Positions 3,001 to 47,528 of a DNA stretch of 64,000 nt are shown one piece after another; position 1 is the first letter of the stretch, and every line of letters starts with the position of its first letter. The stretch is taken from the NCBI GenBank assembly GCA_008632985.1, contig QPGO01000015.1, forward strand, positions 373,998-437,997, written 5' to 3'. The notes below the pieces were generated by a model. That model was not told the origin of the DNA. It did not search any database and was given only the letters and a program-made list of their open reading frames with translations. Source of the DNA: Psammoneis japonica (Eukaryota). The position numbers and the translations under genes are program-made.

Positions 3001-5450
3001 GCCTGTCTTCATGCCATTTGGCTTTGGCACAAAATGTCACAGAGACAACATGCTTTTGCAGCACTGCTGCCTTGTGTGGGAAGATGCTTTTTGTGTCACC
3101 TTTGAGGCACACACCTTGAACAACACACTGGCCTCCATCTGATGCCCTTTTGATGCACCATCATCAAATGCAGTCAAGACATTGCTCATGAGCAACTGGT
3201 GCACAAGCAAAAACTTCTCCAGTCTGGTGGAACATTTTGCCCTGCCACAATGTGGCCTGCATTGTGCAGAAACACAATGATGGGTTTGCTCTTCAAACAC
3301 ACAACCCACAAAAAAGCACAGAACACTCAGCTTGTGTGTTGGACTGGCTTCATCAACTGGCAATTTCCTGAGCTCACACATCTTGTGCTCTCCTTTTGAC
3401 AGTGCCTTTTTCTCTGGATGTTCAAGCAGAGATGGCAGCTCAACCTGCTTTTTCATGGTTGGCTGACTTGCTGGTGCTGGTTTCAATGAGACATCATTGT
3501 GACCTTGCACATTTGCAGCAGCAATGTTGGTGTGCCTTGTGCACTGTCAGGTGATGAAAACAACAGGTTGTCACAAGTTGCGCCATGTTGTGGAGTTCAT
3601 GAGACCAGCTTGTTTCTGAAAAAAATTGTGTGAATGGGGAGTTGTGCAAATTCCCTGTTGAATTGCTCTTTGGATCACATGTGGCCAACTGTGCCAAAGT
3701 TTCTCCAACTCCATTTGCACACATGATCATGAATGCATGCACCACATGCCACTCTTGTGCAACATCATGATTGCATTGATGGCCTGTCAATGCACACACA
3801 CCACATGCACAGATGCTCACACTGCTGCAGCTCTTGACAGTGATGGCAGCATGCTTTCTTCATGTCCCAGCTGTCTTCTTTCCAGCTGCAATGCCTTGAC
3901 AGATTGATCTGGTTTCAGATCATTGTGTGCTGGATTGACCCCCATCTTTGGAGCTTCTCACACTGGCCAGCCAAAAAAAGCCATGCCACATTTTCCAGTT
4001 TGGCAACTCCACCATCTCACTTGTGCACAATCATTTGGTGTGCATGAAGTTGGCGACCTGTGGCAAGGCATCACCACAATCAAGCATCTCCCAGTGTTCA
4101 TCTCCATCTGATTTTTTGCTGTGATTGTGAGCCCCATTTCTGGAAACAGCCTGTGAAGATGTGAGCACCACCATGGGTGGGAGGAATCCAGCTCCACTGG
4201 GAGCCAGGGTGGCATTTGGTTCTTTTGTTTGCACTGGAGAGATTGGCGCTGTCACCTTTCTGTCTGCAACAGCTCTTTCTTCTTTCAACAATTGCAGAGC
4301 ATCTTGCCATAAAAAATGGCAGTGCTCAACTCCGCATTTGCCACCATGACAAGTGACAACACACCCAGCAGCATTGCAACAGCCCCCCACTTGCACCATT
4401 TTGGACCACATGAGAAAGTCAATGAAGTCAATGTCATGTGCACCTCTGATTGGCAAGAAAGACATTGAAAGCCTCTTCCATTGAGCGCCCACCCAAGATG
4501 CTGGTGTTGATCTTGCCAGCAACATGACTCAGAGCACTTGCAACAGAGCATTTGCAGAGATTGCCAAATCTTCCTTGGCATGCAATTTTCAGGCCTGGAC
4601 AGGCTCTTGTCTCCATTGCCCACAGTTTGCAGCCATCAAAGCTGTTGATTGTGGGCTGTTCAAAGCAGCAAAATTGCCTTGGTCAGCAACAGAGAGTCTT
4701 TTTGCAAAACAATCTCTGGGTGGGTTCTTTGTGCCATTGTTGACAGCTGGCTGATGCCAGCAATGGCACTTGTGTCATGGGAGCCCTGCAGCAGGGGAGA
4801 CATGCAACCCAAAAGTGCTCACTCTGCAAAAGCTGCACAAGCTCAGGCTCGCTCCACTGAGTGTGTGTCTTGACATGACTGTGTGTCTCAACTGTGGGTG
4901 ACTCGTGTCATGAGCATTGCAGACTCATCTGGCTCCTGAGGACATGTCTGGTGAGCAAAAGCTTCTGCTCATAGAAGACAACATTTGTGCATGTGTGTGA
5001 AGAGAGAGCACATTTCACAGGATGAGTCTTTTCATGACAACACATGTGCCAGCCCAGGTGAGCAGCTCTCACAGCTGTCAACAAGAACAGCAAAGTTTGC
5101 AGCTGCTCAATGCCCCTTTCCCTGCTTTTGTGGCACATGAAAAAGGAGCAGGGGGTGAGCTGGGTTGTGAACAGGAGATGAAGTGCCTTGGGTTGCTCAG
5201 TCATCTCCAAGGTGAGCGAGCCAAGGATCAAGGAGAACCTTCATCAAATGCAGCCAGCCGCACACCAGAGGGTGAAATGCAGAGAAATGAATGAGCCAGC
5301 TCACAAAAAGAGCAAAACAGCCAAGAACCCAGAGAGATGCTGGAGCTTGCGGCTCATTTGTTTCTTCATTGTTTCATCACTTCTCATGGAATCACAAGGG
5401 AATAGAATGGACTTGTTTCTGTGCGAGTTTTTGCGACGTCAACATGCCAT
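1..5450. other. TpA- and CpG-depleted, CA/TG-rich hypermutated block (decayed repeat/TE DNA, family not identified)
   Basis: Only about 20 TA dinucleotides in 5.4 kb by manual scan, mostly TTAA/TTAG/CTAA. CpG is rare. Overlapping Cys/His-rich ORFs contain almost no Tyr. Confidence 0.85.
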
Positions 5451-17747: not shown

Positions 17748-18341
17748 GATGAATAGTAAATCCCTTGATTCTTTAGATGGCTAGAAAAGTATCCCCAAAA
17801 CAAGTTCTGTTATATCATTCCCCACAAAACAGTAACAACAGTCGCTGTGTGCTGTGTGCGTGCGTGCTGTGTCGTTTCGAGGTTGCTTGGCATTTGTTGA
17901 ATCTTGAATGTTGAATGTGTCGTCGGTCGCGCGTCGCGCGTCGGAGTGAAGCTTGCTTGTGCGCGTTTCCGTGCACGAAATCTTTCGAGAAAGCTGTCGC
18001 TGCGCAGTGGGCAAGGATGACACATCAGTGAACATCATCAGGCCCTCCAATGCACAGGTTGGGCCCTACTCTAGCGTTAGACAACAGCTCGCTTTTTGCT
18101 GCCATAAATGATTTTTAACCATGAAGCCAGATCAATGTTTTTTCTGCTTGTGGCCTGTGCTGTGCTTGGCCGCCATCCCGATTCCCAGTGGCATCACGCG
18201 GTTTTCAGCTTGCTCGATTGTTGAGAAGCAGCACTGACGAAAATCCTTGCCAGACCAACAATTGCAGAGCTTCTTCCTCCAAGCAACTTCCTCCAAGCAA
18301 GGTCCTCATTTCTCCATCACCGCACCACCAAAACTGCAGAG

Positions 18342-19300
18342 TCAAGATCGCCTTCTTCCCCGTCCAGTGTCGCGACACTTCCAGCGAAGTCGGGTCACAT
18401 TCTCCGCATGGTCACGCAAGCCAAACCTCAAATTCAATGACTCGTGGTTTCCTGAGTCCTTGTCTGCTGTGACGCCATGCTGACAAGCATTCCTTGTTTG
18501 ACCTGACAGCATGCAGACATCCTGCTGTTCAAGCGACAAACATGCTTGCCTGCCCTGCTCCCCTTGTCTGACAGCTTCTGGCACTGTGCTTGCAGATCCA
18601 CAAATTGAAATTGTGACAATGACAATGCCAAACCCATCCTTTGTCGGATGATCAACATGAAGGGGCAAAAGATGATGCCCATTGTGCAGGCTGGGTTGCA
18701 CCGCGACGAGTTGTGGAAAACGCAGATGCTTCGCTTGTTCTGCTGGTGCCGCCGACGCCCTCAGTGTGCTGCAAAGCTGTTCAATTGCTCTCTGAGCATC
18801 TTGAAGGAGCAGATCATTTTCCTTGCATGGATGCAGAGCCACCATTGCTTTCTCATTTCTGGGCCGTTCAGCGGCTGCCATTGCCAAAGAAGCGCTGGGG
18901 GTTGTGAGACATCTGGGGAGACGATTGCACTTTTTCATCATGGCCCAGAGCACCTGGCAGAAATCCAAAGGCTTGCTCTCTTGGATCAAAGATGGACCAC
19001 TCCATGACACCATTGCATCTGAGGCTTCTTGTTGAATGGTGTCGTAAAGGTGCCGGAGCATCTGAAAATTGGAGCAACCAAGCATGGTGCGACCCAAGCC
19101 AGCAAAACAAGAATCCAGGTTTTCATTGAAATTCTCGATTCCATCCCACGTCTTGACATTAGCCCAGAGTGCATTTTTTGCAGCAGCCGCCTCAACAGTG
19201 TCTGAAGGCAGACTCCGCAGGTGTCATCCCCATGACTGCCATTGCAACTGACACTTTCACCAACGAAACACTCACTGCTGCTCTGCCATTTCCAAACAAA
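18342..19300 (-). pseudogene. Hypermutated 2OG-Fe(II) dioxygenase (AlkB-fold-like) pseudogene inside a TpA-depleted block (~18000-19850)
   Basis: LPLHVDHP (HxD), DGFGIVIVTI, LSGQTRNACQHGV (distal H), ESLNLRFG. Almost no TA or Tyr codons. Confidence 0.65.
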
Positions 19301-20056
19301 TGGAGCGTCAGCACCAAGAAATCGAGTGCCTGGGTCAAAAAGAAGTTTCAGCGCTTCATTGTGTTCATGTCACGCACAATTCAGAGCAGGCAACCATGCT
19401 TCTCGGGCAGTGCCACGAAGTCAGTTAGCTGCTAGACTGGCCAGTTAGCCAGCTCTCTCTCTCTCTAGAGCAGAGGGCCCTGCCGGCACTCTAGAGTGGA
19501 GAGCATTTAGCACAACAAGTTAGGGGAGCAGGACCCTGCTTCTGCTCCAGTTAGAAGCAGTTAGTTAGAGTAGAAGCAGCAGCCCTGGAGTCAGCATCCG
19601 CGTTGGAGTAGAAAATTTTATCGGTTTTGACAGTTTGAGTTGGTCCTCGATGGAGAGTCCTTCCAAGAACTGCACGCACCAGATTGTTCAGTCAATGCTT
19701 GGATGCCCATCATCTGTGGGTGGGAATCGTCTGGTGGAAGGATCCGCCCGCTTCTTGGGATTTGGGAAGTTGGTGTGGAGCGGCAGCAGCACAAGAGTCA
19801 AAGAGAATTAACCATTGCTGTGGTGGCATCCTTAAACTAACGAACTGGGACAAACTGGCGCCAGACAGGTAATACCCAGACACAGTAATTGTTGTTTACC
19901 AGGTTGACATCATTATTCTTGAAGGTGGCAAAGGAACTGTGATCTTGCGACTTTTGATAATTGAATCGTAGTCTACTTGAAAGAAACACAGTCCTTCTAC
20001 TTTTCATGTTTAACAAATATAATATTTCGAAGAGGCGATTCTGCATTTGTTCCTTC

Positions 20057-21515
20057 CTACTCCTGCTCAGTCCCCGACTCCTTAACCATGCCATGATCAT
20101 CGTCTGTGGTCGCTTGGTCACCCGTGACCCCAGCTGCGTCTTTCTCTGTCAGTTCTTCTCCTTCCTTGACACTCTCTTCCATGGCGTCGGCTTCTACCAC
20201 TGCATCCCCCTTCTTGCGCTTTCGCCACCTCCACGGATGAATCCACCGCCATTTTTCTCGGCCTGTCATTTCATCATTAGCATCTGGATCGTATCCTTCG
20301 ACCAACATGAGTTCATCGACCATTTCCACGTCTCGCACCTCCACCGGAGTCGAGGCGATGTCTAACTCAAGCCTAAACCGCTCCAAGTCCTCTTTGGCAC
20401 GCATGCACTGTACCAGTTGGGCTTCCAAGATGACAACTAGACGAGAAAGCGTTTGATCCTCAATATCCTCTGGTTTAGTCTTCATCACCTCTCGCCAAGA
20501 CATTTCAGCCTCGGCACATTCATTCTTGAATCGGTCGAGCGTTCGGTCATACCCCTCTTCGCAGGCCATCCAATGGGTGTATGCCGCCTTTTGCTGATCC
20601 TGCAAAGTAACACCAGCTTTGCTATCATAGTACTGCTTATATTCATACCCTTGTACACCCTCGACAACCTCGGAAGGCAAGCATTCTTCAACCATGAGGG
20701 AATCGTGTTCATCCAGTATATCTTGGCGGCTGCGGCCCGCCCAACAACAGCACGGATCAATAATACTGTGCTGTTCCATATCTCTCATCATACGAATGAG
20801 TGGAACTGCCTTGGGGGTGACGCAGGTGAGAAAGGAAGAAGCGAGAAACAGACAGGATGCAATGATGGCGTAAACACCTCCTTCGTCCAGCGAACATACG
20901 TAAACCAGGCCTTTGGGAAAGCATCCTGCACAACAAACCACAGCATGCACACACAACATGACTTGAGTATTTCGAATGTGTTAAGCAATTCACTGCACGT
21001 TCATAAACCATTCGCTTACTGTCAATGGCAAACACAGAAAATGTGCCCGCTTGGAGAAACGCTGCGAGAATCATCGAAAAGACAATAATGACGCGGCTGC
21101 ACCAAAAGCGGCAGCACAAAAACTCTGTCAGTAGCAACAAAAGGGCAGCTGCCCCAATAATCAAGGCGAGAACACCACAAGCCCGTGCCGCTCGAATGCC
21201 GGTTTGCAAGTCTTGCTTGTCGACAGCGTAGTCGGTGCATCCTAGTCCTGTAGGATTGGCGCGATACAAGCCAAGTGTAGAGAACACTTCTGTCTCGTCG
21301 TCGAGCAATTCAACTTCTTCGGGTGCTGTGGTATTCAGATCTAGATCACCCTTGACCTTTGCAAAAGCACACGACCGCAACACGAGAACAGAGAAGACGA
21401 CACCAACCAGGGCGACAGACAGAAGGATCATACGGAGAAGACGTGCCACCCAGTCGGAGCCATGATACCAAGCCTTCTTTAGGACCGCTTCTCCAGGGTC
21501 ATCGTCATACATCAT
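20057..21515 (-). CDS. Multi-pass membrane protein (claudin-like N-terminus, acidic C-tail); exons 21515-21020, 20925-20057
   Basis: About four hydrophobic helices, a GLYR motif, and a GT..CAG intron that keeps the frame (ID|RCFPKG). Confidence 0.75.
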
Positions 21516-22077
21516 GGTGGATATAACTGCAATAAAGAAAGGCAGATGATTCACCGCAAGTCAAAAGCAGTGGCCCTATGTAGTTCTCGTTCTTATCGTT
21601 TTTGTTCTTCACAAATCATCACCCTGCCCACACGCAACACCCATCCAACAACCAACAAGCTTCAAAAATCTGGATAAGCCAAATCGCGCGGGCGACATCT
21701 ATCCGTTCAGATAACGGCCGTTTGCTTGTCCTTGAGTGAGTGCGGTGCGCAAGTGCTTTGAGCTCCGACCCTGCTGGCCTCTTCTGCAGATTGACTCCGC
21801 TCTCTACGTGTCGATCGTATCGCAGGTTCCCTCTCTCTCTAGAGAGTAGCTAGCAGAGAGTAGAGCAGCTAGAGAGCTGCTCTAGAGAGAGCGAGAGCAG
21901 CTCTCTGCAGCAGCTGCGACTGTGGAGTGAGGGTGACCTCAGGAGCAGAAAGCTGAAAAACGACACTTTCTGCTCCACAAAACGGCTCCTCAACTCATGC
22001 ACTGAATTGCTCGCGTTCCCAATCAACACCACAGGCAAACTTTGCAACAGCTCTGAACAGGCAGGTGGTGCAAGAAC

Positions 22078-23367
22078 TCACACAAGAGCACAAGATGCGC
22101 GCGCACAGCCATCCCCTTGTGCTTCTTCCTCGGCAGAGGGCTCCATCACATCTGACCCGCGCTGGGCATCAGCTCCCACAGCAACAGCTCTCTCTGCAAT
22201 GTCAACACCTGGGGGGTTGCAGCCACCTTCAACAGCACCATCCTTTTTGAAGACAACAGTCTTCGTCTCAACCTTTTCTGGTCGACAGCCTCTCACAGCG
22301 ACCGCCTCATTGCTGCTTGATTCGTCAGCAGCTCGGCGCCATCCAGAGTTCTTCATGACCCAACCCTTGGTCAATCCAGCAGCTCCATCTTCGCCTTTGA
22401 TCACCAGCGTGCCACCCAGATCAAGGCTCTCGACTGTGACCCCTGACCCCTGTGCAACCAGGCTTGAACGAGCTGACACTTTGACGGCAGATGGGTTTGT
22501 GAGCTTCTTCTTGTGCTCTGTGGGAAAGGCGGAGAAGCCCGTGCTCAACACCACAGTGGCAGGACTGAGCACCGCCGTGGCACCGCTGTGTGCTTCTTCT
22601 TTGGCATCTTCAATTTTGCACCCGATGGAGCGCACAATGTTTCAAGCAGAGCAACGTTGATCGGCTTCTCTGCTCACTGCTGTGCCCGGGGCTGTCCCTT
22701 TCTCCTGGAGAGCTGCGCCGTTGGAGGCGGCATTCTTCAACGGAGAAAAGCAAAGATTTGTGGGGATGCTGGCAAAGCCCACTTTTTTAGACATCTCTCC
22801 TGTGAGAGCCATCGGGAAGCCCTGCGATCACAAAGCGACGGCAAGTCAATCAAACACAGTCAACCACTGCAGACGCGTTCCAGGTCCAGGTGGGACCTCG
22901 CACTGCTGAGCTGTGACATCGACAGTTTTTTGAATCACGTCGCATGTCGCGCGCGCACATTTCTGCGTAATTTTGGCAAAAATTTGCATCATTTTACAGT
23001 GCAATCATCGGGCGATCCATTCAACAACTTTTGATGTTTTTTCTTCTGCGCCATTCTCGAGCGTCTTAAGAATGGCGCAGGGCAGGCGCATTGTCCAAAA
23101 CTTTGAGTGCGAACAGAGACATGTGCACTGCAAACTTGGCCATTTGTTTCATGTTGAAGACAAATGTGCCCATCAGCCAGAGTGCGAACTGCAGAGCTCG
23201 CACGCAGAATTCTGTGGGGCAAATGTCACAAAAAGTCCCACCCAGGACTGGAGCCCATCTGCAGCCTCAGACATTCTGCGCAAGACCTGCCTGCATCATG
23301 CACGCCAGATGCGCCGGCTTCTCAAAGACAGTCTTCACCACATCCTCACATCTCGGGTTGACAAATT
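22078..23367 (-). pseudogene. Hypermutated duplicate of the 3' part of UDP-sugar pyrophosphorylase
   Basis: Collinear with 24253-25147. Tyr->His/Cys changes (ETYSG->EAHSG, EYKK->EHKK, GYR->GCR, GYN->GCN). Confidence 0.93.
22873..23258. mobile_element. 386-bp MITE-like insertion in the intron of the duplicated USP copy
   Basis: Absent from the intact copy, which has a single ctgcag at ~25039. Here ctgcag flanks both sides. Imperfect TIRs cagacgcgttccaggtccaggtgggac / gtcccacccaggactggagcccatctg. Confidence 0.8.
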
Positions 23368-23700
23368 TGCCACTCAAGCGCCGGTTTGCAAGTCTTGCTT
23401 GTCGACAGTGCAGTCAGTGCACCCTGGTCCTCGGGGTTGGTGCGACACCAAGCCAAGTGCAGAGAACACTTCTGTCTCGTCGTTGAGCAACTCAACTTCT
23501 TCGGGTGCTGTGGCGCTCAGATCTAGATCGCCCTTGACCTTTGCAAAAGCACACGACCGCAACACGAGAACAGAGAAGACCACACCAACCAGGGCAACAG
23601 ACAGAAGGATCACACGGAGAAGACGCGACACCCAGTCGGAGCCATGACGCCAAGCCTTCTTTGGGGCCGCTTCTCCAGGGTCATCACCGCACATCATGGT
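23368..23700 (-). pseudogene. Hypermutated duplicate of the 5' part of the membrane-protein gene
   Basis: MMCGDDPGEAAPKKAWRHG versus MMYDDDPGEAVLKKAWYHG. Truncated at the duplication junction. Confidence 0.92.
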
Positions 23701-24009
23701 GGACGCAACTGCAACAAAGAAGGGCAGATGATTCACCGCAAGTCAAAAGCAGTGGCCCCAGTTCTCGTTCTTGTTGTTTTTGTTCTTCACAAATCATCAC
23801 CCTGCCCACACACAACACCCATCCAACAACCAACAAGCTTCAAAAATCTGGACAAGCCAAATCGCGCGGGCGACATCTATCCGTTCAGATAACGGCCGTT
23901 TGCTTGTCCTTGAGTGAGTACGGTACGTAAGTGCTTTGAGCTCCGACCCTGCTGGCCTCTTCTGCAGATTGATTCCGCTCTCTGCGTATCGATCGTATCG
24001 TAGGTTCCC

Positions 24010-24125
24010 TCTCTCTCTAGAGAGTAGCTAGTAGAGAGTAGAGTAGCTAGAGAGCTACTCTAGAGAGAGCGAGAGTAGCTCTCTACAGTAGCTACGACTG
24101 TAGAGGGTAACCTTAGGAGTAGAGA
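24010..24125. repeat. CTAG/AGAG-rich low-complexity patch (mutated twin at ~21830-21925)
   Basis: ctctagagagtagctagtagagagtagagtagctagagagctactctag. Confidence 0.75.
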
Positions 24126-24252
24126 AGCTGAAAAACGACACTTTCTACTTCACAAAACGGTTCCTTAACTCATACACCGAATTACTCACGTTCCCAATCA
24201 ACACTACAGGTAAACTTTACAACGGCTCCGAACAGGCAGGTGATGTAAGAAC

Positions 24253-26796
24253 TCACATAAGAACACAAGATGCGCATGTACAGTCATTCCCTTGTGCTTC
24301 TTCCTCGGCAGAGGGCTCCGTCACATCTAACCCGCGCTGGGCATCAGTTCCCGCAGCAATAGTTCTCTCCGCAACATCAACACCTGGGGGGTTGTAGCCA
24401 CCTTCAACAGTGCCATCCTTTTTGAAGACAATAGTCTTCGTCTCAACCTTTTCTAGTCGATAGCCTCTCATAGCGATCACCTCATTACTACTTGATTCAT
24501 CAGAAACTCGGTGCCATCCAGAGTTCTTCACGACCAAATCCTTGATCAATCCAGTAGCTCCATCTTCGCCTTTAATCACCAGTGCACCATCCAGATCGAG
24601 GCTCTCGATTATGATCCCTGATCCCTGTACAACCAGGCTTGAACGAGCTGATATCTTGACGGCAGATGGGTTTGTGAATTTCTTCTTATACTCTGCGGGA
24701 AAGGCACAGAAGTCCGCGTTCAACACAATGGCAGGACCGAGTACCGCCGTGATACCGCTGTACGTTTCTTCTTTGGCATCTTCAATTTTACATCCGATGG
24801 AACGCATAATGTTTCGAACAGAGCAATATTGATCGGCTTCTCCACTCATTGCTGTGCCCGGGGCTGTCCCTTTCTCCTGGAGAGCTACACCGTCGGAGGT
24901 GGCATTCTTCACCGGAGAAAAGCAAAGATTTGCGGGGATGCTGGTAAAGCCCACTTTTTTAGACATCTCTCCTGTGAGAACCGTCGGGAAGTCCTACGAT
25001 CACAAAGCGACGGCAAGTCAATCAAACGTAATCAATCACTGCAGTCTCAGACATTCTGCACAAGACCTACCTGCATCATGCATTCCAGACGCGTCGGCTT
25101 CTTAAAGACAGTCTTCGCCACATCCTTATATTTCGGATTAACAAATTCCGGCATGACTCCCTTGGTACGTTCTAGAGTATCCGCGTATGGCTTTAACTTG
25201 AACAAAAGTTGGTTGATATTACCAGGAAAAGGAGAAAAACCCGATTCATCGTTTACATCTCCGTCCGGATAACCTGACGATCGTAGAAGAGGGTCTAGCT
25301 GATTGTACTCCACGTTCAGCGTCCTATTCAAACACAGAAAAAAACGAGTGAGTTGAGAAAGGCTCCAGACTGTAAGGCGGGAGTGCTCTGGGCTAGCCAA
25401 AATCGTCGCTGCTCTGGAAGTTTGATTCTCGAATCATTGGTGGTCGTGCCACTCTCTCATATGTCTCTATCTACTTTTTGGTGTTTGGTATATCATCATT
25501 GCAACGGTGAACAATCAACATATGCTACATTCTGCCTGCTCATACGTACCTTGTTTCCTGGGTTTTCTCATTTTCGAGCTTGGCGATGCCACCAATTGCC
25601 TGCTTTGCTTTCCGCGGCACGGCCACTGAGTTCATGACAAGGTCAAGCTTTTTTGAAACGCCAATGGCCAGTGGAAGAGTGTGAAACGCAAGTCCATTTG
25701 TGTCCTGGAAGAAAATCATCCACTGGATTCCGTTCTTCAACCACGTCTTTGCTACTTGGTGTGAATGCAACAATGAGTGGATATCTCCATGACCATGAGG
25801 TTTAGCCAACAGTTTGTATCGCGAAGTGGGATCAAGCGCAAGTCTGGCGTCATTATCTTCCAATGCTGGCACACCTTCTCCCTGAATCACAATGGTTACT
25901 TGACTCTTGTCCATTCCAAAATAGTTGTTTTCGGAGAGTAACTTGACCGTTCCGGCGTTCGTGTCACCTGATGTCATGATGCATAGCGGCAACCTGGCTC
26001 CTTTAGCGGCGTACCTATTTTGCAACGCCAAGATGTACTCGATATAGAACTGAAGATACAAAGTCTCTGTTGCCATTTCAGTCGGCAGTCCAATCTTGAT
26101 ATCACTATACCCGAGACGCTCTCCCAGTCCACCCGCTACAAGAACAAACCCGACACTTCCTAGATCTTTCATGCCCAGACTCTCCACAGCGTCGAATTCC
26201 TTGGACCCTAGCACAAAGGTTTGTCCGGAAGGAACACTAGGTTTCCATCCATCCAATGGATTAACGCCCATTTTACTTTTCTCGAGCAAGTCCCTCGCAT
26301 TCTGAATGTATCCTGCGAGTCCTCCTGCAGTGTAAGCCTGATCCATAGATTCGAGCTGTTCGACAAATTTTCGTTTGAGATTGTTGCTAGCTTCAGCAGA
26401 TGGACTGGATGTAGCTGATGGTTTGGACCAGTGCTCGAACAAATGAGTTTGGTTCAGGTCCGGAGAACACAACGATTTTACCAACTGTTGTTGTGACGGC
26501 GTAAAGAGCGAGAGAGACGCCTCCAAACCTGCCGGTAGGCCTGCCTTCTTCTCAGTCTCATTCTCCTGACTTTTGTCTAAATTTTTTGTCGGTTGCTTCT
26601 CAGTAGCTTCCTTTACAACAGAAGCAGGCTTTTCAGAGTATGGCACGGAAGGAACAACATCATTTTGATTCAAATTATGATGCGGCGCACTGTCGGCAGC
26701 GACGCCTTCTGCGTGCGGCTTTTTCGTTTTCGCTTTTCCTGCACCCGGACGCCCCTTTCCCGCTCGGGATTTTCCCTTCTTACTCTTCTTGCCCAT
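24253..26796 (-). CDS. USP: UDP-sugar pyrophosphorylase; exons 26796-25550, 25323-25071, 24993-24253
   Basis: FVLVAGGLGERLG, KPHGHGDIH, FFQDTNGL, NVEYNQLDPLL, FPGNINQL, EFVNPKYKD, RLECMMQ|DFP. GT-AG introns keep the frame. Confidence 0.93.
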
Positions 26797-27244
26797 GACG
26801 TTGTTAACAGGAACGTCTCACGACAAGATAGAAGCTTCCACTTGACTGTTTATTGCAGCACACAACACAATTACAAGCCTCACACAACACATACCATTGC
26901 GTGTTGCGTGTTGCGTGCCACCACCTCACAAAACTCAAGATCGCACGCCAGATCCGAGGCGAAACAACGGAAATTATATTCGATATTTAGAAATCAATAC
27001 AATCATACTGAATATTAACCGCTGTCGTAACAGCGACAGACGCTACGTAGAACCACGTATCCATCGTACATTCGTAACGGTCAAAAATTGACACGCCGGC
27101 GCGCGCCGACGCGCAAACATCAAAAGAGCACAGCCACAGCAAAAAGTTCTCATTCTCATGGCGATGGGCGATGGGCGATGGCACTTACTTACACGTCGTT
27201 ATTTCCACCGTCCACACCGCCACAAGAACTCGAGCCAAGTCATA

Positions 27245-32329: not shown

Positions 32330-35300
32330 CTTGCATTCAAAAATAAACACCACAAAAAACCTCATTCAAAACAAAACCCAAAGTCTAATTTTAAGTGCTG
32401 CTGCGCTTCCACCCTGCAACTCCAGCAACAAGCTGACCCACACTCCCAGCACACTGGGTGCGGCAGGAGCACACAACAATTGGCCAAGATCGGCATCACC
32501 CTCGGGTGATGCTGCGCCGAAGTAGCTTGCGATGGTGCGCGTGCCTCTAACAGCTAGACGCCGGGCCTCTCAGACACTCGACTCAAACATTGGCTTCACC
32601 ACGGCGAGCCAGTTTCGGAGTCTGTGGGTGGAATGGGTGAGATGTTCATCTGCCGAATCAAAAAACTGTGCTCGGTCATGGGCCAAGCACTCGTCTGCCC
32701 TTGAGTAAATTTCTTTAACCTCTGCCTCTGCATCCCGTCATTGCAAAGACTTTCTCATCTCGGAATCGTGCCCATGTGCTGCATCATTGTGGGAGCCCCA
32801 CAATTCCCGCCATTGTGACCACACACAGCTGCCAATCGTTGCCGCCCAGTCTAATCTTTTGTCTTTATCGGACAAGGAACAATGCAAGCCAGAGGACACC
32901 AAGTGTGACGTTTGTGCCTTGTTCCACAAAGAAGCAAAATGCCCACTGAAAATGTGATGCCAACCAATGTCGTCTTGAGATCGAAACACCTCTGTGACGC
33001 TGTGGTGAACGTGAGTAGAACAAAGCAATTCCTCATGGAACCAACCTTCCAAGGCACACAACAACAGGTCTCATGTGGACAGGGACGTGTGCATGTCGTC
33101 GCATTTCTTCCGCAATCCTTGGAGAAACGTGCGCCGCCACGATTCATTGTGAGCACAATGCAGAATGTGGTCCCTGTCTTCAAGGGGGTGTTGGCAATGC
33201 TTGCAGCAGTCGGGGCGTGTGGGATCATGTCTGTGGACAATCTTGTTTGCCGGTGGCAAATCTTGGGCCAATTTCACGGTGCTCACCTTTTGTCAGACAT
33301 TGCAAGACATCAGTTTGGAATGCACTCTCCAATCAATAGATTCGCACACTGAGTCAGACCACCCGCACTTCTCCTTCATACATTGCATCAAGGCGGGGCT
33401 GGAAGCTTCACAACAGAGAACTGATTTAAACTTCAAGTTCACCGATGCCGACCGGACGTTCAGCAATGCAGAGCAATGGGGCATGCGGGGGGCCATCAAG
33501 GCATCTCTAGTGTGTTGACCCTGAAACAAACCTGCCAGTTTGTCAGCTCTGACATTCAATTTTGCTGGAAACGGGAGGGACTCGAATGGAGTGTTGTCAT
33601 CCTGATGGCTTTTAATCCACTTCATGTTGACGACGTTGCTTGCAGAGTGTCCGTCATGTTGGGCCTCCAAACTTGTTAATGAAACAAAGATCTCATGGAT
33701 GACATCCCAGTCCGGTGCCAACGTGTTGGTGACATGGTTCCAAAAATGAAAATCTTGTTGTCGCTGTGAGTCATCTACGTCCAATGGAAGCAGTGGGGAA
33801 GAATGAAAGTTGGCAACGTTGCAGCACCAGAGAGGAATTGTCACAACAGGCAGCCACGCCGTGAGAGAAATGGCTGTTGCAAAATTCCAGCACTCGAATG
33901 AGAAAATGCAGAACTGACAAGAAGCCGCGTGCTTCTGCTCGATGCAAGGACAGTCGGAATCCAAAGACCGGTCCAGCACAATCTACAAGAATCACTCCAT
34001 CAACCACCAGCGTCCAGCCAAAGGTGCAATTAAAATGCAACACGGAACCATCACTTCCCACCTCTGCCCGGAAGCGCCAAAGGGAATCCGCCATTTCAAA
34101 TGCCAACACATGCATGGCAAGGTCACTGAACAGGGCAGACTCCCACAGCGACAGAGACCGCAGCCATTCGCAGAAGTCCCAGAGGACAGGAATTGTTGGA
34201 GGCATCTTCACTGGGGACACAGTGGAGCACACCCGCCATCTACCGTCTAGAGTTGTGTCCACCACAACAGGTGATGCCAAAGGAGATGGGTCCAGAACCG
34301 TTTCTAACTGCTGCAGGGTTTCAGCGCAAGCATCCTTGACTGGAAACACTTGACAACCCGCATCAGATTGGACATGCAAAAACTCTTTGGAGGGCTCATA
34401 GCAGGCAGGGTGAAGCACACGCATCTTGGAGGCAGGGACGGTCCATTGACCTAAAGGGGTTCATAGGATGGAAGCACCTTTGTTGCACAAAAGAGCCACA
34501 GCTTGGCTCCATTGTTTCCAGGTGCGAGGTGACGGGCGTGCCTGTTCGACTGGGTTGAGTGACGACATGCTACTCACAAGGGAAGTTTGCCCTTCCAACT
34601 TGAATTCATCCAAATGTCTGCCGTCAGGAAGAGCAACGTCCGAGACAGCAAGCACTCGTGGGAACAGCCTGCAATGGTTCACCCACCTTGTCTCTTTTTC
34701 AGAGAAAAGCTTGGACTCCAGTGCCGCGTCCACAATGTGTTGATCATTCTCTCGTTGTGCAGGAAGGATGCCAGTGAAATCCAAATCGAATTGTGAGTCA
34801 ATGCGAGCAAGAAAGGATCTCATTGACACAAACCATTTGGACTCGGAGTGTGGGAGTCTAGTGTGCACATCTTTCAGAAAACTGGACCCTGTTCCAAGCT
34901 GGAACTGCATCCATGCAACTGCAATGCGGGACAAGGCATGAGGTTGACCAGTGCCTCGCCAGTGTTGAAGGAACTGCAAACATTGAGCGACACCCTGCTC
35001 CACGTCAAGAGAATGGAATCCTCCACCTCCTGAGGTGTGCGGGCCGTACAAAACGTCCCGCTTGGTGTTTCGGTTGTAACCGCACTTTGCAAATGTAGTT
35101 TGCATGGCCTTTCGTTGAATCTCAAGTGATTCCTTTGGTTGGAAATGGGCACTTGGAAGGACACAAGCAGTGGAGGCCAGGCAGCAAGCAAAGCAGTGAG
35201 TCCATGCCTCGTGACGGTCCAATGGGCACGACATAAGAAACAGAGAAATGTCGTCACTTTTCGGTTTTAGTGCCTTGTGCTGAGTCTTCTGAGTGCCTGC

Positions 35301-36870
35301 AGGAGATTTGTAATGACCCAACGTCTTGTGGGAGGAGCATGCTGAAAGTTGTGTGCTGGATCGTTTGGTGGATCTATCAGCAGAGTGCATTTCGACATCA
35401 ATCTCATCATTGTGCGCCCGAAGGTGTGGCTCGCCATCTTCAGCAAAAAGCCATTCAATGGCGTGAAACGAGCACTTTGGAAGCTCAAGCTTGTGTCCTG
35501 CCACGTCCAGGAGGTCGCACCACAACTGATTGTCTTGCTGCATTCAAGGGACCAGGTCCAGCGCATCTGGTTGGGGATCAGCACAGAAGGCATTGACTTG
35601 ATTTGAAGTGTCATCAACATGCCCTCTGGTGCACATCTGCATTGAGACTTTCTGGTCAGGAGTTTCAAAGCAGGCTCCGTGAGCTTGACCATCAAATGAC
35701 CAAAACAGGCTGTTGCAAATCTGATTCCAACAGAAGGGTGAATTTCCGCTGCCCTGACCAGTGCCGTAAATGGGGAGCTCATCCGAGTGGGAGCAAGATG
35801 ATGATGAGAGGCCAAGAGCTGTCTTCAACCAGCATCTTGTGTCATGCAAAGCAGCGTTTGTCGTCTGTGTTGCTGATTTGGGCATGCCATTGCTGCGGCT
35901 TTCAAGTGCTGTTAAGGCAGGAATGTTGCGATCGCAGCATGAGGCACAATCGCCATCACTGTGAACAGCAGTTTTCCGGGAGACTCCACTGATCTCAAGC
36001 ACAAGTTCCTCGAGGTGCACCGGAGCATGGGCATTCAAAAAGGGGCGTGTCCCGTAGACACCTGGATTGTGCAGATGACGGTGTTCCATGTTCTGTGCCA
36101 AGACTCTCCATTTCACACTGGGTGTCAGTTGGAAATCTGCCTCACAGATGTGGATGACTCGGAGACGATGGATCTTGTTGTCACCCGGCTCTTTGAAAAT
36201 CATTGCATTGACGATGTCCTTCCACCTGTCGAACGAGCATCCCCAATGCAGGGCACAGTTGAGCAAGTTCAAACAGATCCGAATTGGCCGTTGCTGAACT
36301 TTGTTCAAATGCTGACACTCAGGCGTGGGATCACCTTCGGGAGCAGTGGAGTCTGAATGAGAATGAGATGCATGCATTGCTTTCCAGTGTCCCAAATGAA
36401 GGCCTGAGAACACAGAAGTAGATGCAGTTTCCTTCCACACCTTGAGTTTTCCCTTGAGATCAGATTCAGTCAGGAAGTTTGACACAGATGCTGGGGAACG
36501 TCTTTGGAGATGTTGGATGAAGAGAGCAGCAGTGCTGTTGAGAGAGGATGCATCATGCTCTCCATCTAAGACAAGGTCGGCCACAACCGTGTCACCTTCA
36601 CATCCAAGATCCACAGAAAGGGGGGGAACTGCAGGAGGTGTGCCATGTGCTTGACCAAAATGTCTCTGATTCCGAGAACACAATGCTGCAGAAACGTCAA
36701 CTGGGGCATCTGTCGTGATCCAATCTTCGCACTCTTTTGGATTGGCAGCCGGGTTGCAAAACCTTGTTCAAATGCAACGGCAATTTTAGGACAAATGCCG
36801 GGATGACCCCCCTTGAGATGCCGGTGGACAGATGGGGCCTGCGGCAGACCAATGAGAGACAGTGGTCTGT
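32330..36870 (-). mobile_element. Degenerate non-LTR retrotransposon (LINE with RT, RNase H and C-terminal Zn knuckle; possibly Ambal-like), 5'-truncated
   Basis: RNQRHFGQA, SGLHLGHWKA, KEPG..IHRLRVIH, DCASCCDR, YGTGQGSGNSP, GHVDD. RNase H motifs SDGS/HRAEA/CDN/WIKSHQD/NVRADKLA, then EDRDHILHC. Confidence 0.9.
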
Positions 36871-38732
36871 GCCTCCCCCCTGCGCGAGTGGGGGGGGGGG
36901 TGTTTTTGCAATCTGCTGCTTCAACGACATGCTCTGCATCGCAGAAGCAGTGCACGAGCCTGCAAGCACCCTTTGAGCCACAGCAAGCTTGCTCTTTTTC
37001 TTCATCAACATTGCACTGCACGTTTGTGAGATGAAAGAGCAAGTTTTGCTTGCAGCTCGCCTTCTGTCCCTCCACATTGATCGCACCCGATTCACACTGT
37101 GGTGATCTTGACTCACGGGAGCACCGCTGGCCACTCTGCTTCTGCGACGAGCGCTCCCATGCTCACAGCCGGCACTTCGACCATCTTGGTGAAGTGCGGC
37201 TGCAGTCTTCTTTCTGCCCTTGCAGAGACTCCTTCCTTCTGGAGTGACCAGTTGTTCTGGCCATCACGGTGGTCTCCCGTCCCCACATGGTCGTCACAAC
37301 TCTCAAAACAGCGTGGTGGTTTGCGTTTGGACTCAAAAGCTGATGACATTGCCATCACCTCAGGCCTCTTGGCCACCATCAATCGCGGTCCCCGCGCAAT
37401 GGTTGGCAGCCCCTGCACTTGGCCCTGGGCACGTCCCTTGCATCTGGAAAATGTCATGGGCTCTTGTTCAGAACTTGTTTTGCTCTTGTTGAGAATCCTG
37501 TGTTCTTGACAAGTGCTCATTGATTGTGCATGAATCGATTTTAACAATTGTTTCAACATGCCAAGTGGGATTTAATGCTTGATGAAAATGACTCCAATTC
37601 TTTGTTCAATCTTGACAAGATCATGACCACAATGATTTTAAAATTGTTCAGCTCACGTTCACAATTAATGCAACCTTCCAAGTGGGAAACAATTGTCAAC
37701 AAAACTTCTTGACAAGGGTGCAATTGCAACTGCTTTGCAACATTGTTCATTTCTGACAACTGCAACATTCATTCATTGCATTAAGATGCTCGTACATTGG
37801 CTGTGTGTTTCTTGCAATGTGATTGTGCCAGCTGTGTTTTGTCATTTCTGCAGTGAACGGATTTTTGCTTCCTGTTTCCTGCTCTTCCCTCCTTGGCTTT
37901 TTCCTGTCTCCTGCTGGTTCTCCTGTGCCACAGTGATGGCACGATGCTTTTGCTCATTTCGCTGACCCTTGCATCCGCTCTTGCTTGCCATGCACAAAAT
38001 CCAGTCATTCATTCTGTGTCGTGACCTTGTCTCTTTTGCTCGTCATGCCAGATTGCCAAAGCTTTACCTGCAAAGAAGAGAAAAGAGCTTGCAACAGATC
38101 AGAGCATTGCACATGCTTTGTTTTTGAGTGGGCTTGTCTTGACAAAAACAGCGCTTCTGCTCACCTTTGCACACGACCAAGTCTCTTTTGTGTTTTGCAC
38201 CAGTTTGCCAAAGCATCGCCTGCAAAGAAGAGAAAAGAGCACGCAACAGATGAGAGCATTGCATTTGCATTGTTTCAAATGTGCTTTGCTCACCTTTGTG
38301 TGGCCCCTGCAGGGCCGTCTTCCCTTCCATCTCCCTTTGCATGTCATCAACATCATGTCTGAGTTGAAAGATTGGCCAAAGCATCAGTTGTTTGCACTGT
38401 TGCCCAAACTCCGTGCACTCACAGACTCAGTTCCTGCCTCTCTCTTGCCTTGTGTTCCGCATTGTCCTCCTCCCCCTGGTGCTCTTCTGTTGCCTTCCCT
38501 TGCTGCTGATGTCATTGTCATGATGTTTGACGAGCCTTGTGTTTTGTGTTTTGTGTCTTGTGAGGAAATGATGGTTCATGTTTTTGCAGCAATGTCGAGC
38601 CTGTCCAATTTTGTTTTAAAATTCCATGCTCACATTCCGTTTTGAAGGTTTGAATGGTTTGAAATGACTCAATGAATCATCCAGTCATTTGGGTTTTGCA
38701 TGTGTGTCGGCAGTCGGTCAATTTCTCATCTT

Positions 38733-38845
38733 TCATTGTGTCGATGTGTTCTCATTAAGATGCAAATTTTCACAGTCTTGCTGCACAGTTTTCATCATGT
38801 CAATGTGTTCTTGTTAAGATGCAAATTTTCACAGTCTTGCTGTGC
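38733..38845. repeat. ~59-bp tandem duplication
   Basis: atgtgttc..ttaagatgcaaattttcacagtcttgctg occurs twice. Confidence 0.8.
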
Positions 38846-39149
38846 AGGTTGAGCTGGCAAATCTCAAGCTCAATCTCAGCCACAAAAGCTCAGCAGCAGG
38901 AGCCCTCAGAGAAACCAAGGCTCTGCTGCCGGAGCTGTTGCAGTGCCGGCTGATGGTCCAAACCCAGCAACTGCCACCACTGCTGCTGCCTTCACAATGA
39001 CAAAGCCGCTGCCGACCATGCAAATGCAGGCCTGTGCCACTCTGTCTTCAGCCACTGCAATCTCATGCACTGGCACAAAGTTCCCATGATTGTTGTTGCA
39101 TGCCCTGGCACCCAATGGAGTCTCCTCCCACAGCCATCCCACAAGGCAA

Positions 39150-42100
39150 CTGGTCACTTGCGCTGTCACACAGATGGCTCAATGGCATCTGCACAGGTGC
39201 ATTGGCTGGACCAAAGAAGGCCCCAGTCATGTCATCAGAAAGAAAAGGGGCCACATTGTTGACACAAGACAAGCCTTTGCTCCCCAACCAAGGTTGTTGT
39301 TGGCTCTCCTGGGATGCAATGGAGTCACCCAAGGGGCCAGCAAAAGATGTCTGGGCACTGGCTCTGTCTGTAGAAAGTTCCCTTGCCTTTGCAGGTGGGG
39401 TGGTGGCTCCGTCACCAAAGCAAGCCGATCACATCAGAAAGAAAAGGGGCTGCATTGGCCCAAGACAAAAGGCTTTTCCTTCCCAACCACCGTTGTTGTT
39501 GCCTCCTCCTGGACACAACAGAGTCTCTTGTGCCCATCCTCAGACAACTGAGTGCTTGCACTGTTGTCACACAGATGACTCCCTTGTCTTTCTTGCAGGT
39601 TGAGCCACCAAAAGCCATCCTGAGAAAACAGAGTGCTTGCACTGTCACACAGATGACTCCCTTGTCTTTCTTGCAGGTTGAGCTGCCAAAAGCCATCCCA
39701 AGACAATGCAGTGCTTGCACCATCACACAGATGGTTCCCTTTTCTTTGCAGGTTGGCTGATGCCTCCCCACAGCACCTTGTGCAGCTGGGCATTTTCTTG
39801 TGTGGAGGGATCTTGCAAGGGGCTGCTGCTGCTGCCCACAACATGGCTTGCAGCTTCCAAAATCATTCATGTGCCGTGCACCCCTCGGCAAGCCTGTTTT
39901 GCTCCAGTTGGAGACACCAAGACATGCAATCAAACTCACAACCAGACAAGGCTTTTCCTTTGCAACCACTGTTGTTGTTGCCTCCTTGAGGACCCAATGG
40001 AGTCTCTTGCAACTGTCCCAAGACAACATGGAGTGCTTGCACTGTCACACAGACAGTTCCCCTGTCTTCCTTGCAGCAGGACGGTTCTTGGCTGGGCCAA
40101 ACCCAGCCATGCCAGAGAGACAAGGTGCTGCACCAACACAAGACAAGGCCTTTGCTTTCCAACCATTGTTGTTGTTGCATTCTCTGGGACCTGATCAAGT
40201 CTTCCAAGGCCACCCCATGACAACAGAACACTTGCACTGTCACACAGATTGTTTTCTTGTTTTTGCAGGTGGTGTGGCTGGGCAAAGAAACCCAGTCATG
40301 TCAGAGAGACAAAGGGCTGTGTGGACACAAGACAAGGCCTTTGCTTCCCAACCATTGTTGTTGTTGCATCCTCTGGGATCCACTGGAGTCCTCCAATGCC
40401 ATCCCAAGACAGCTGCAAACCTCCTTTGCCACCAGGCTGGCAACACCATGAGTGCACCCACCAACCTGACAACTTTTGTCAAACATCATTGGCTGTCTTC
40501 AGTGGACCCCAGGTGACACTTTAAGAGCCATGGTTGGAAGTTGCAAAGCCATCCTGGCTGAGCTGCAGCTTCTGTGTCACTTCACACACCACTGCCAGGG
40601 TGAGACTTGACTCCCAAATTCAAAAAGTGAAACAACACCATGAGTGCACCCACCCACCCAACAACTGTTGTCAAATGCCATTGAGTGTCTTCTGCAAACC
40701 CCAGGGAACACTTTTCTCAGCCATGGTTGGGAGTTGCAAAGCCACCTTGGCTCAGCTGTGGCCCATGTCACTTCACAAATGTCAGGGTGAGACTTGAGCC
40801 CCAAAGTCAAAAGTGAAACAACATCATGAATGTGCCAACGCACCAAACAACTGTTGTCAAACACCATTGGATGTCTTCTGTGGACCCAAGGTGACACTTC
40901 AAGTGCCATGGCAGGGAGTTTCAAAGCCAACCTGCCTCAGCTGCAGCCCATGTCACTTCACAAAATGTCAGGATGAGACTTGATTCCCAACTTCTGAAGT
41001 GAAACAGCACCATGTGTGCACCCACCCACCCAACAACTGTTGTCAAACACTGTTGAATGTCTGCAGTGGACCCCAGGCAACACTTCAAGAGCTGTGGTCA
41101 GGAGCTTCAAAGCTGCTGTGGTGCAACTCTGGCTCTGTGTCACTTCACAATTTCAGGGCGAGACTTGATCCCCAATTTCTGAAGTGAAACAACATCATGA
41201 ACATGCCAACACACCAAACAACTGTTGTCAAACACCATTGAGTGTCTTCTGCAGACCCCAGGGAACACTTTTCTCAGCCATGGTTGGGAGTTGCAAAGCC
41301 ACCCTGGCTCAGCTGTGGCCCATGTCACTTCACATGAGACTTGAACCCCAACTTCTGAATTGAAACAACATCATGAATGTGCCAGCGCACCAAACAACTG
41401 TTGTCAAACACCATTGAATGTCTTCTGTGGACCCAAGGTGACACTTTGAGTGCCATGGCAGGGAGTTTCAAAGCCAACCTGCCTTAGCTGCAGCCCATGT
41501 CACTTCACAAAATGTCAGGGTGAGACTTGAACCCCAACTTGTGAATTGAAACAACACCATGAGTGCACCCACCCACCCAACAACTGTTGTTCAAACATCA
41601 TTGACTGTCTTTGGCAGACCCAAGGCAAACCTCAAAGAGCCATGTTTGGGAGTTGCATGGCCCAAGTGCCACACCGACACAAGACAAGGCCTTTGCTTCC
41701 CAGCCATGGTTGGTGTTGCATTCTCTGGGACCCGATCAAGTCATCCAAGGCCGCCCCATGACAACAGAGCATTTGCACTGTCACACACATGGCTTTCTTG
41801 TTTTTGCAGGTGGTGCGGCTGGGCAAAGAAACCAGTCATGTCAGAGAGACAAAGGGCTGCATGGACACAAGACAAAGCCTTTGCTCCCCAACCGTTGTTG
41901 TTGTTGCATCCTCTGGGATCCACTGGAGTCCTCCAATGCCATCCCAAGACAGCTGCAAACCTCTTTTGCCACATCTGTGGGCACAGTGCTTTCACACCTT
42001 GTGCAGCTGGGCATCTTCTTGTGTGGAGGAATCATGCAAGGGGATGCTGCTGCTGCCCAAGACATGGCTTGCAGCTTCCCAAATCAAGATTGCAAAGACA
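39150..42100. repeat. Complex repeat containing a ~186-bp tandem array (~40440-41660, ~6.5 units) flanked by ~300-bp direct repeats (~40133-40430 and ~41677-41968)
   Basis: aa(g/t)tgaaaca anchors at ~40625, 40811, 40997, 41182, 41358, 41544. Recurrent cacaagacaaggcctttgcttccca and tgcactgtcacacagat modules. Confidence 0.9.
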
Positions 42101-47000: not shown

Positions 47001-47420
47001 CCTTGTTCCCTTTGCCATTGACAATCTCAGCACCCCTGGGTGCTTTGCTCACTGCCTGCTCTTTGGTGCCAACCAAGACCATCCACTCCTCCCCTCCCTT
47101 CCTCCACTGCCCTGGAATTCAGAATCCTCCTTCCAACACCCAGCTGCATGTGTTGCCTGTGCCAATGCCCAACTCTCCCCATCTGGCCTCATTCCTGCTG
47201 CCACAGCTTCCTGGACTGCACCACGCAACTGCTCCCACCCAATGGGGCCTCCAGAGCCTCAGCCTTGTTGTTGCCAAGTCCCTTGCTGATCAACTTCTTT
47301 GCTGCTTCACCAAATCACATGCCAAACTTGCTGCTCCTGGTCCCAGAACCCTCCCATTCCCTGCCTGCATGACACAATTTCATCCCACCATGCCATCTGC
47401 ACCTCACACCACACCATTCA
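44100..47420 (+). mobile_element. Degenerate CRE-like non-LTR retrotransposon (RT plus restriction-like endonuclease)
   Basis: IGVKGGLD, EGFCQ, ACLDI (YxDD position), GGLG, C..C...DPCGNHAFFC...KTPLSNATCD (CCHC), CPANV (RPAD-like), AVDITV, PFAID. Confidence 0.8.
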
Positions 47421-47451
47421 TTGACGTTGCACATGAACTTCTCATGTGCAT

Positions 47452-47528
47452 GTGCCAGGCAGTTACCCCAACCAACAAGCAATTGCTCAAGTGCCAGGCA
47501 GTTGCCCCAACCAACAAGCAATTGCTCA
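47452..47528. repeat. 39-bp tandem duplication at the 3' end of the CRE-like element
   Basis: gtgccaggcagtt(a/g)ccccaaccaacaagcaattgctca occurs twice. Confidence 0.85.

Follow-up and report, generated by a model that had tools for sequence, protein, structure and literature searches.

Why have two neighbouring copies of the same sequence lost almost every TA dinucleotide in their inner halves and kept them in their outer halves? The question is raised by a tandem duplication in the genome of the diatom Psammoneis japonica, which lies in a window of 64,000 nucleotides (assembly GCA_008632985.1, contig QPGO01000015.1, positions 373,998–437,997 of the forward strand; all coordinates below are positions in this window). 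The duplicated unit contains the start of a gene for a membrane-like protein (gene X) and the end of a gene for UDP-sugar pyrophosphorylase (gene Y). Comparison of the copies shows that the inner interval, at 21738–23858, has undergone context-specific, directional and domain-confined A:T to G:C hypermutation accompanied by CpG decay. The duplication provides an internal control: the same sequence, of the same age and in the same nucleus, is present in two states, which isolates the mutational spectrum and the context rates. A previous interpretation based on the letters of the window alone, here called the sequence-only reading, had noticed the loss of TA from the inner halves. The CpG decay, the window-wide extent of the phenomenon, the per-strand motif, the transposon within the zone and the precedent in Bigelowiella natans go beyond it.

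Organization of the duplication

The 2.18-kb tandem duplication was delimited by repeat search and local alignment. Copy 1 and copy 2 are approximately 89% identical across 1.7 kb, with register offsets of 2172–2182. In plus-strand order, the duplication consists of the intact X 5′ part, the Y′ fragment, the junction, the X′ fragment and the intact Y 3′ part. Its features are as follows, with the strand given where one applies:

21186–23367: duplication copy 1; intact on the left as far as 21680, where it completes gene X, and hypermutated on the right from 21738
23368–25147: duplication copy 2; hypermutated on the left as far as 23858 and intact on the right from 23916, where it completes gene Y
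23367–23368: duplication junction, spanned by a public DNA contig of 327 nt (23234–23560, depth 52.6)
20057–21621, minus strand: gene X, membrane-like protein; ATG at 21515, intron 20925–21018, spliced contig up to 21621
24141–26817, minus strand: gene Y, UDP-sugar pyrophosphorylase; stop codon at 24253–24255, introns 24993–25069 and 25323–25548, spliced contig end at 24141
23371–23697, minus strand: X′ fragment, a truncated hypermutated copy of X codons 1–109
22081–22827, minus strand: Y′ fragment, hypermutated duplicate of the last Y exon, with 63 of 246 residues changed
21738–23858: contiguous hypermutated zone, about one repeat unit plus an inserted element; the left edge is graded and the right edge is sharp

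Both genes are encoded on the minus strand, and the stop codon of Y and the ATG of X both fall within the duplicated unit. The best relatives of gene Y are diatom proteins with 57–71% identity, and a Pfam search found no family for the gene X protein. Contigs of the public run X2 cover X (20800–21621) and Y (24141–25325 and beyond) and skip three stretches bounded by CT..AC (20925–21018, 24993–25069 and 25323–25548), a pattern expected of spliced minus-strand transcripts, which shows that both genes are expressed and spliced. The label 'DNA?' of run X2 is a guess, and none of the listed runs is recorded as RNA. Except for a low-depth piece of a miniature inverted-repeat transposable element (MITE), no X2 contig lies over 21766–24019, which was not taken as evidence of silence. 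The Y′ fragment contains one in-frame TGA, derived from CGA, and reads READQR-stop, VRGC and DLGGTLVI where the conserved GEADQY, MRGY and DLDGALVI are expected.

The hypermutated zone

The count given in the sequence-only reading, 25 TA in 24241–24840 and none in the twin at 22066–22670, was exact on recount; 13 of these TA have become CA, 11 TG and one CG. The zone as a whole has lost 71 of 80 TA, and its core (21898–23858) 63 of 65, so that most of the nine survivors are located in the graded left edge (21738–21897). At unit positions left of 21680, the TA of copy 1 are retained, whereas 16 of 17 are gone from copy 2. At positions right of 21738 the roles are exchanged: the TA of copy 2 are retained, and 55 of 63 are missing from copy 1. 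The proposal that the right part of copy 1 and the left part of copy 2 are the mutated ones is thus borne out, and the two motifs quoted for the outer and inner sequence, gagtacggtacgtaag at 23916 and gagtgcggtgcgcaag at 21738, are both present. The zone, which had been placed at about 21740–23980, is indeed contiguous and begins at 21738; its right edge has to be moved to 23858, since positions 23859–23915 are unmutated.

The copies differ at 181 sites, nearly all of them due to the zone. There are 173 transitions and only eight transversions in approximately 1700 aligned sites, with almost no insertions or deletions. A:T to G:C changes in the zone's copy account for 139 of the differences, and G:C to A:T changes for 34. 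With the twin as internal control, approximately 170 changes fall in the zone's copy and at most about ten can be assigned to the intact copy. CG dinucleotides in the zone have decayed as well, 28 of 86 having become TG or CA; from the zone counts, the loss of TA is approximately five times faster than that of CG (−ln 0.11 versus −ln 0.67). This pattern of differences is not due to chance.

Direction of change and neutral DNA

Without an outgroup, a comparison of two copies is symmetric, and the outer halves could in principle have gained TA by CpA to TpA changes, in the manner of the repeat-induced point mutation (RIP) of fungi, with the inner zone ancestral. The last exon of Y and its twin were therefore aligned with 20 diatom USP orthologues, and 56 of the 63 differing residues proved informative. 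At 47 of these the orthologues agree with the TA-bearing copy and at six with the mutated copy; three are ties. For gene X, one partial orthologue was available, and all four sites compared by eye side with the intact copy 1. Together, the orthologue vote and the gene X sites indicate that the TA-free state is derived and the TA-bearing copy ancestral; the direction from TA to CA or TG, as claimed from the sequence, survives the outgroup comparison. Furthermore, the TA-bearing halves match the level of genic DNA in the window (TA observed/expected of 0.58, in contrast to 0.04–0.09 in the TA-free domains described below), and the open, spliced genes are located in the TA-bearing copies. The reversed polarity, refuted by the orthologues, deserves hardly any credence.

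The inner fragments are non-functional, truncated and interrupted by an in-frame stop codon, as would be expected if dead fragments had simply drifted, through the usual mutation bias of the genome or through GC-biased gene conversion, and only the functional halves were held by selection. The non-coding DNA of the intact halves, however, contains TA at or above the genic level. Its share of dinucleotides is 8.9% in the Y 3′ region, 3.9% in the Y intron and 4.2% in the X 5′ region, as opposed to 2.4% (in the graded edge), 0% and 0% in the respective mutated twins. The claim that the outer halves keep TA even in intergenic and intron DNA is thereby confirmed, and because this non-coding DNA keeps its TA, selection does not explain the pattern. 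Drift is also difficult to reconcile with eight transversions in approximately 1700 aligned sites next to an 89% loss of TA, and with the strict dependence of the changes on sequence context. We regard an explanation without a targeted process as very unlikely.

Verification of the assembly

It may also be asked whether anything has mutated at all: a mis-joined haplotype or modified bases misread during sequencing could give a similar picture. Contigs of the public DNA run X1, which were built independently, carry the mutated sequence at a depth of 52–55, compared with 58–61 in the flanks, and a single 327-nt contig bridges the junction. The depth of 52–61 over the flanks and both copies demonstrates that the duplication has full coverage, and this rules out a haplotype join at half depth, which could have undone the sequence-only reading. 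One X1 contig joins 21906 to 24030 (side 21) and was considered as an unduplicated allele. However, the joint is 54 nt out of the repeat register and lies inside a low-complexity block containing the palindrome CTCTAGAG, and it was read as k-mer ambiguity.

X1 and the window differ at nine positions in approximately 1290 nt of the zone, all of them CG versus TG or CA, five in one direction and four in the other; only one difference was found in the intact parts. The nine positions are 21817, 21983, 22003, 22049, 22356, 22431, 22521, 23767 and 23812. Either CpG sites turn over rapidly between isolates or the consensus is wrong at methylated CpG; whichever the cause, the CpG of the zone are unstable. 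Consensus errors of this kind would be in favour of an artefact. The clean transitions with almost no insertions or deletions, and the replacement of tyrosines by cysteines and histidines in a decayed transposon elsewhere in the window, are consistent with real sequence, and we know of no rationale in base calling for the strand rule described below. An artefactual origin of the zone is highly improbable.

Context rule of the mutator

The context of the changes was determined for each strand separately, with the intact twin taken as the ancestor (Y, pyrimidine; R, purine; V, any base except T; W, A or T). The A to G rate is highest at TAY, where 31 of 42 TAC and 24 of 29 TAT are changed (0.74–0.83). 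It is lower at TAA (8 of 29) and TAG (5 of 32), 0.12–0.24 at VAY and 0–0.03 at VAR. The AAY rate of 0.20–0.23 is similar to those of CAY and GAY, and a 5′ A brings no enhancement. In TA sites with TAY on one strand only, the change is on the TAY strand in 39 cases and on the other strand in three (p = 6 × 10⁻⁹). Sites of the RTAY type, which have TAY on both strands, are lost in 19 of 20 cases, four of them changed on both strands, and YTAR sites, which have it on neither, are lost in 9 of 15.

Out of the 139 A:T to G:C changes, 76 are within TA and 63 outside TA, at R-T. The T to C changes outside TA affect 29 of 161 AT and 30 of 152 GT, and only 1 of 210 CT and 3 of 194 TT. This need for a 5′ purine is the VAY rule read from the opposite strand. 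The C to T rate is 0.15–0.30 per strand at CG and at most 0.04 elsewhere, and there are only six C:G to T:A changes outside CpG. Among the zone differences, the two strands are mutated equally and there are no strand-coordinated runs (82 runs observed, 69.5 ± 5.8 expected), which points to many independent events on duplex DNA and not to a processive single-strand burst. TTAA was considered as a refractory site and rejected: it is lost in four of four cases in the duplication, and the difference between the TAY and TAR rates covers both this and the survival of TTAA elsewhere.

Adenine deamination on DNA would fit the A to G changes at T-A-Y, and thymine oxidation at R-T-A may be the alternative chemistry. 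Several known activities can be compared with the rule. ADAR and the ADAT/TadA-type deaminases resemble the diatom process in converting A to G and in preferring a 5′ U or T; they differ in that their substrates are RNA. The substrate loop of the tRNA recognized by TadA reads U-A-C, which resembles the 5′ T and 3′ pyrimidine of the diatom zone. ADAR prefers 5′ U or A and 3′ G, and the latter is opposite to the 3′ pyrimidine of the zone, where the TAY rate is 0.74–0.83 and the TAG rate 0.16. The hotspot of polymerase eta is WA, which does not fit the combination of 5′ T and 3′ pyrimidine.

TA-free domains in the window

Three-state segmentation of the pyrimidine–purine steps, applied to 63,952 bases, assigned 34,079 of them (53% of the window) to TA-free domains. 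In old domains, TA and CG are both nearly absent (1–5395, 38244–42620, 45171–49619 and 54387–62595), whereas in young domains TA is gone and CG is partly lost (18120–19414, 21898–23858, 32396–38242 and 42623–45168). Besides the core of the hypermutated zone, the domains are:

32396–38242, minus strand: decayed long interspersed nuclear element (LINE) in a TA-free, CG-poor domain; relatives of its endonuclease, reverse transcriptase and RNase H at 39–47% identity; conserved Tyr replaced by Cys or His
18120–19414, minus strand: TA-free domain over a 2-oxoglutarate (2OG)-Fe(II)-oxygenase-like open reading frame (ORF) of 293 codons at 18345–19223; relatives of up to 43% identity
1–5395: old domain with TA and CG near zero and without recognisable genes
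38244–49619: old, young and old domains at 38244–42620, 42623–45168 and 45171–49619
54387–62595: old domain with TA and CG near zero

The observed/expected ratios in the old domains are 0.04 for TA, 0.09 for CG, 1.83 for CA and 1.92 for TG. The sum of the TA, CG, CA and TG steps is steady at approximately 120 per 500 nt, which shows that both palindromic steps drain into CA and TG. The loss of CG in old domains is approximately 91%. The G+C content is 0.521 in young and 0.496 in old domains, a gap of about the size produced by CpG loss alone, and this may hint, though weakly, at A to G changes having occurred early and within a limited episode. Relative to the counts in normal regions, TA survives in the other domains at 0.74 in TTAA, 0.34 in CTAA, 0.19 in TTAG and 0–0.03 in RTAY. 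The survivors are thus mainly in the YTAR contexts predicted to be poor targets.

The two domains with recognisable content show the effect on proteins. In the LINE domain, 28 Tyr columns conserved in 25 relatives contain four Tyr, 12 Cys and five His, whereas in 120 LINE homologues the share of such Tyr retained is nowhere below 58% and has a median of 85%. The 2OG-oxygenase-like ORF has kept none of five conserved Tyr and is possibly a host gene that has been silenced or has died. Of the 166 ORFs in TA-free domains that are 90 amino acids or longer, 150 were searched against Pfam; one weak 2OG-oxygenase match and two matches at chance level were returned, and the old domains yielded no family.

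The 166 ORFs, out of 251 of this length in the window, overlap TA-free domains in all six frames, an example being 33774–36767 on the minus strand. Frames remain open over long distances in TA-free DNA because TAA and TAG are gone. The old domain at 38244–42620 contains a 186-nt satellite at 40441–41657 (6.6 copies, 77% matches), and further diverged repeats are located at 39084–42086. Domain edges lie near the starts and ends of normal genes (49418–49626 and 5395–5403): a GST-like ORF starts at 49418, and the domain ends at 49619. The edge positions are consistent with domains filling all DNA between active genes.

Comparison with known hypermutation systems

The closest precedent is the hypermutation at TpA of silent, integrated viral DNA in the chlorarachniophyte Bigelowiella natans (Mettrop et al. 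2026, bioRxiv 10.64898/2026.01.13.699255). According to the available text of this preprint, 231 of 302 new mutations in mutation-accumulation lines fell in two integrated viral regions; nearly all were A to G or T to C, all were at TpA, and they arose at approximately 1000 times the background rate and in some lines only. The large region is transcriptionally silent and single copy, and the authors propose an ADAT2-like deaminase.

As far as the process is described in that text, the diatom and B. natans share A:T to G:C changes on either strand, with TpG or CpA as the product of TpA, discrete regions that mutate far above the rest of the genome, and a long-term depletion of TpA with a gain of CpA and TpG. 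In the diatom, A to G or T to C changes make up 139 of the 181 differences and the remainder is mostly CpG decay (28), and the affected region is confined, with the sharp boundary at 23858. The differences are also distinct. The diatom is a stramenopile; its targets are host gene fragments, a LINE and old relics, whereas those described in B. natans are viral inserts. The zone itself consists of two host gene fragments, and the LINE occupies another domain. The targets in the diatom are not limited to TpA, with 76 changes in TA and 63 outside it. The TA observed/expected ratio is 0.04–0.09 in the diatom domains and 0.45 in the B. natans viral region. The words 'CpG' and 'diatom' do not occur in the text of the preprint available to us, nor is the TAY rule stated there. 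New in the present case are the diatom host, the host-derived target, the saturation, the refined TAY motif, the non-TA class of changes and the accompanying CpG decay. No report of a TA-loss signature in diatoms was found in the literature searched, a limited collection.

RIP of ascomycete fungi mutates both copies of a duplication and depends, before meiosis, on a protein of the RID/DNMT4 type. The diatom process is like RIP in being saturating and restricted to transitions, in inactivating non-essential duplicated or repeated DNA and in leaving a strong dinucleotide trace. RIP, however, makes TpA from CpA, whereas the diatom process destroys TpA, with only the six C:G to T:A changes outside CpG noted above; and only one copy is struck at each unit position of the diatom duplication. 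The contrast with RIP drawn in the sequence-only reading is therefore justified, the chemistry being opposite as well. The CG component resembles the methylation-driven decay of CpG in silenced transposons: CG becomes TG or CA, C to T changes are restricted to CpG (28 of 86 in the zone, approximately 91% in old domains), and CpG are the zone's only polymorphic sites, an indirect hint of 5-methylcytosine there. Such decay explains the minor component only and leaves TA untouched.

Boundaries of the zone and the trigger

The right boundary of the zone and the switch between the mutated and intact states of the copies are associated with a short spacer, and a transposable element is inserted in the zone:

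21681–21737: spacer S, copy 1; 57 nt, the same in both copies; two TA and seven CG, all retained
23859–23915: spacer S, copy 2; sharp right boundary of the zone
22873–23261: MITE-like element; 389 nt, terminal inverted repeats of approximately 30 nt, duplicated CTGCAG; only in copy 1, in the intron of the Y′ fragment

Spacer S contains the palindrome AACGGCCGTT and is located 60–116 nt upstream of the X transcript contig end. It is a possible barrier to the mutator: a barrier at an occupied promoter element would place the switch at the same unit position in both copies. The barrier idea is only suggestive.

The summed contig depth on the element at 22873–23261 is 3 × 10⁴ to 1.4 × 10⁵, compared with approximately 58 in the flanks, and we read it as a very high-copy MITE-like element. 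Its copy in the zone is approximately 99% like the family majority, with four listed differences, and is probably younger than the zone because its 22 CG are retained. Spreading of the zone from the MITE as a nucleus was considered and is unlikely: the copy has only these four differences and all its 22 CG, and the flanking zone is without a third of its CG. The MITE-like family sequence holds only three TA, and 1606 contigs of run X1 were matched, the majority presumably on the MITE-like element.

Two alternative triggers would account for the position of the zone. In the first, a heterozygous duplication leaves a loop of one unit, whose phase is set where the pairings of the flanks met, and only the partnerless DNA is mutated; new transposon or viral inserts would be treated likewise. 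The zone is indeed one unit long in permuted phase, one copy is struck per unit position with the switch inside 21681–21737, the inserted LINE is also among the targets, and those described for B. natans are single-copy inserts (bioRxiv 10.64898/2026.01.13.699255). Nevertheless, the duplication is now at full depth and not hemizygous, the left edge is graded over approximately 160 nt, and 57 nt are spared in both copies. To our knowledge, no mechanism that mutates unpaired DNA has been described for diatoms. The B. natans mutations, moreover, arose in mutation-accumulation lines, and meiosis is not mentioned in the Results and Discussion of the preprint as available. We consider the unpaired-DNA trigger unlikely.

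In the second alternative, repeats are recognized by homology, as in RIP, and transcribed or active-promoter DNA is protected, so that only the untranscribed halves mutate. In favour of this, duplicated DNA makes up the zone, both the LINE and the MITE are members of repeat families, and the spliced contigs show that the spared halves are parts of expressed genes. The spared halves also include, however, an intron, a 3′ flank reaching approximately 220 nt past the Y transcript contig end and the DNA 60–116 nt upstream of X, all with TA. The MITE, the most repeated piece, retains its CG and is approximately 99% like the family majority, and the large hypermutable region of B. natans is reported in the preprint to be single copy. 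A homology trigger is accordingly an improbable explanation.

The palindrome CTCTAGAG occurs eight times in the window (0.36 expected), at 6962, 17147, 19463, 19489, 21837, 21880, 24015 and 24058. The copies occur mostly as pairs, in low-complexity, CT/AG-rich blocks of the intergenic DNA that lies downstream of genes. In the graded edge of the zone, these blocks have kept their TA (CTAG).

Proposed mechanism

In the explanation that we favour, a recent tandem duplication left two non-functional fragments, the 3′ end of Y and the 5′ end of X, back to back between intact genes. The inner interval between the two copies of the promoter-proximal spacer was then struck by a locally confined mutational process, which changes A to G on either strand. 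Its main target is 5′-T-A-Y-3′; TAR and VAY are affected less strongly and VAR scarcely, so that TA ends as TG or CA. The same interval loses CG to TG or CA more slowly, in the manner of methylated CpG. The process would be of the B. natans kind, that is, a TpA-directed hypermutation of silent integrated DNA, acting here on host-derived DNA, a LINE and older relics. Since such different sequences are struck, the trigger would be a state of the DNA, and neither foreignness nor duplication as such. The candidate agent is an adenine deaminase that acts on DNA, and spacer S may act as the barrier. Taken as a whole, the combination of a duplication, a domain-confined TAY mutator, CpG decay and a state-dependent trigger appears to us probable, though not strongly so.

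Several points weigh against this explanation. The silence of the zone, its putative CpG-methylated chromatin and the restriction of the mutator to such chromatin are deduced from the sequence. TTAA is lost in four of four cases in the duplication and yet is the main survivor elsewhere, although the numbers are small. The public DNA run may derive from the sample behind the window assembly. Two independent boundaries would match in unit position by chance in approximately 5–20% of cases, by our estimate. In 80 related metagenome LINE loci, none of 1685 windows of 1 kb has a TA observed/expected ratio below 0.15. Finally, 63 of the 139 A:T to G:C changes in the diatom (45%) are outside TA, at VAY, and CpG decay accompanies them; in B. 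natans, to the extent covered by the preprint text, essentially all changes are at TpA and G:C to A:T changes do not rise, and the two processes may differ.

Implications

With the duplication, a phenomenon so far described in only one preprint, of 2026, is extended to the diatoms, which are a major group of ecological importance, and the A to G process is tied to CpG decay. As the duplication further shows, the process is triggered neither by foreign origin nor by duplication alone. Half of the window is free of TA and CG, which defeats family searches and yields long spurious ORFs; TA-free DNA has to be allowed for in the gene calling, repeat annotation and mutation-rate models of such genomes.

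More tentatively, and with less confidence than we place in the mechanism itself, the process may be a genome-defence mutator of diatoms, a 'reverse RIP' carried out by a probable DNA adenine deaminase at 5′-TAY-3′. In a limited episode, it would pass over DNA that enters a silent or partnerless state, including fresh duplicates of host genes, and erase every TA, so that no TAA or TAG stop and no Tyr codon would be left, before the slower decay of CpG. A rhizarian alga acquires the same signature de novo, and for this reason the mutator might be shared across the stramenopiles, alveolates and rhizarians (SAR). If this is true, it would explain a large share of the unannotatable 'dark' DNA free of TA and CG, which makes up half of the window.

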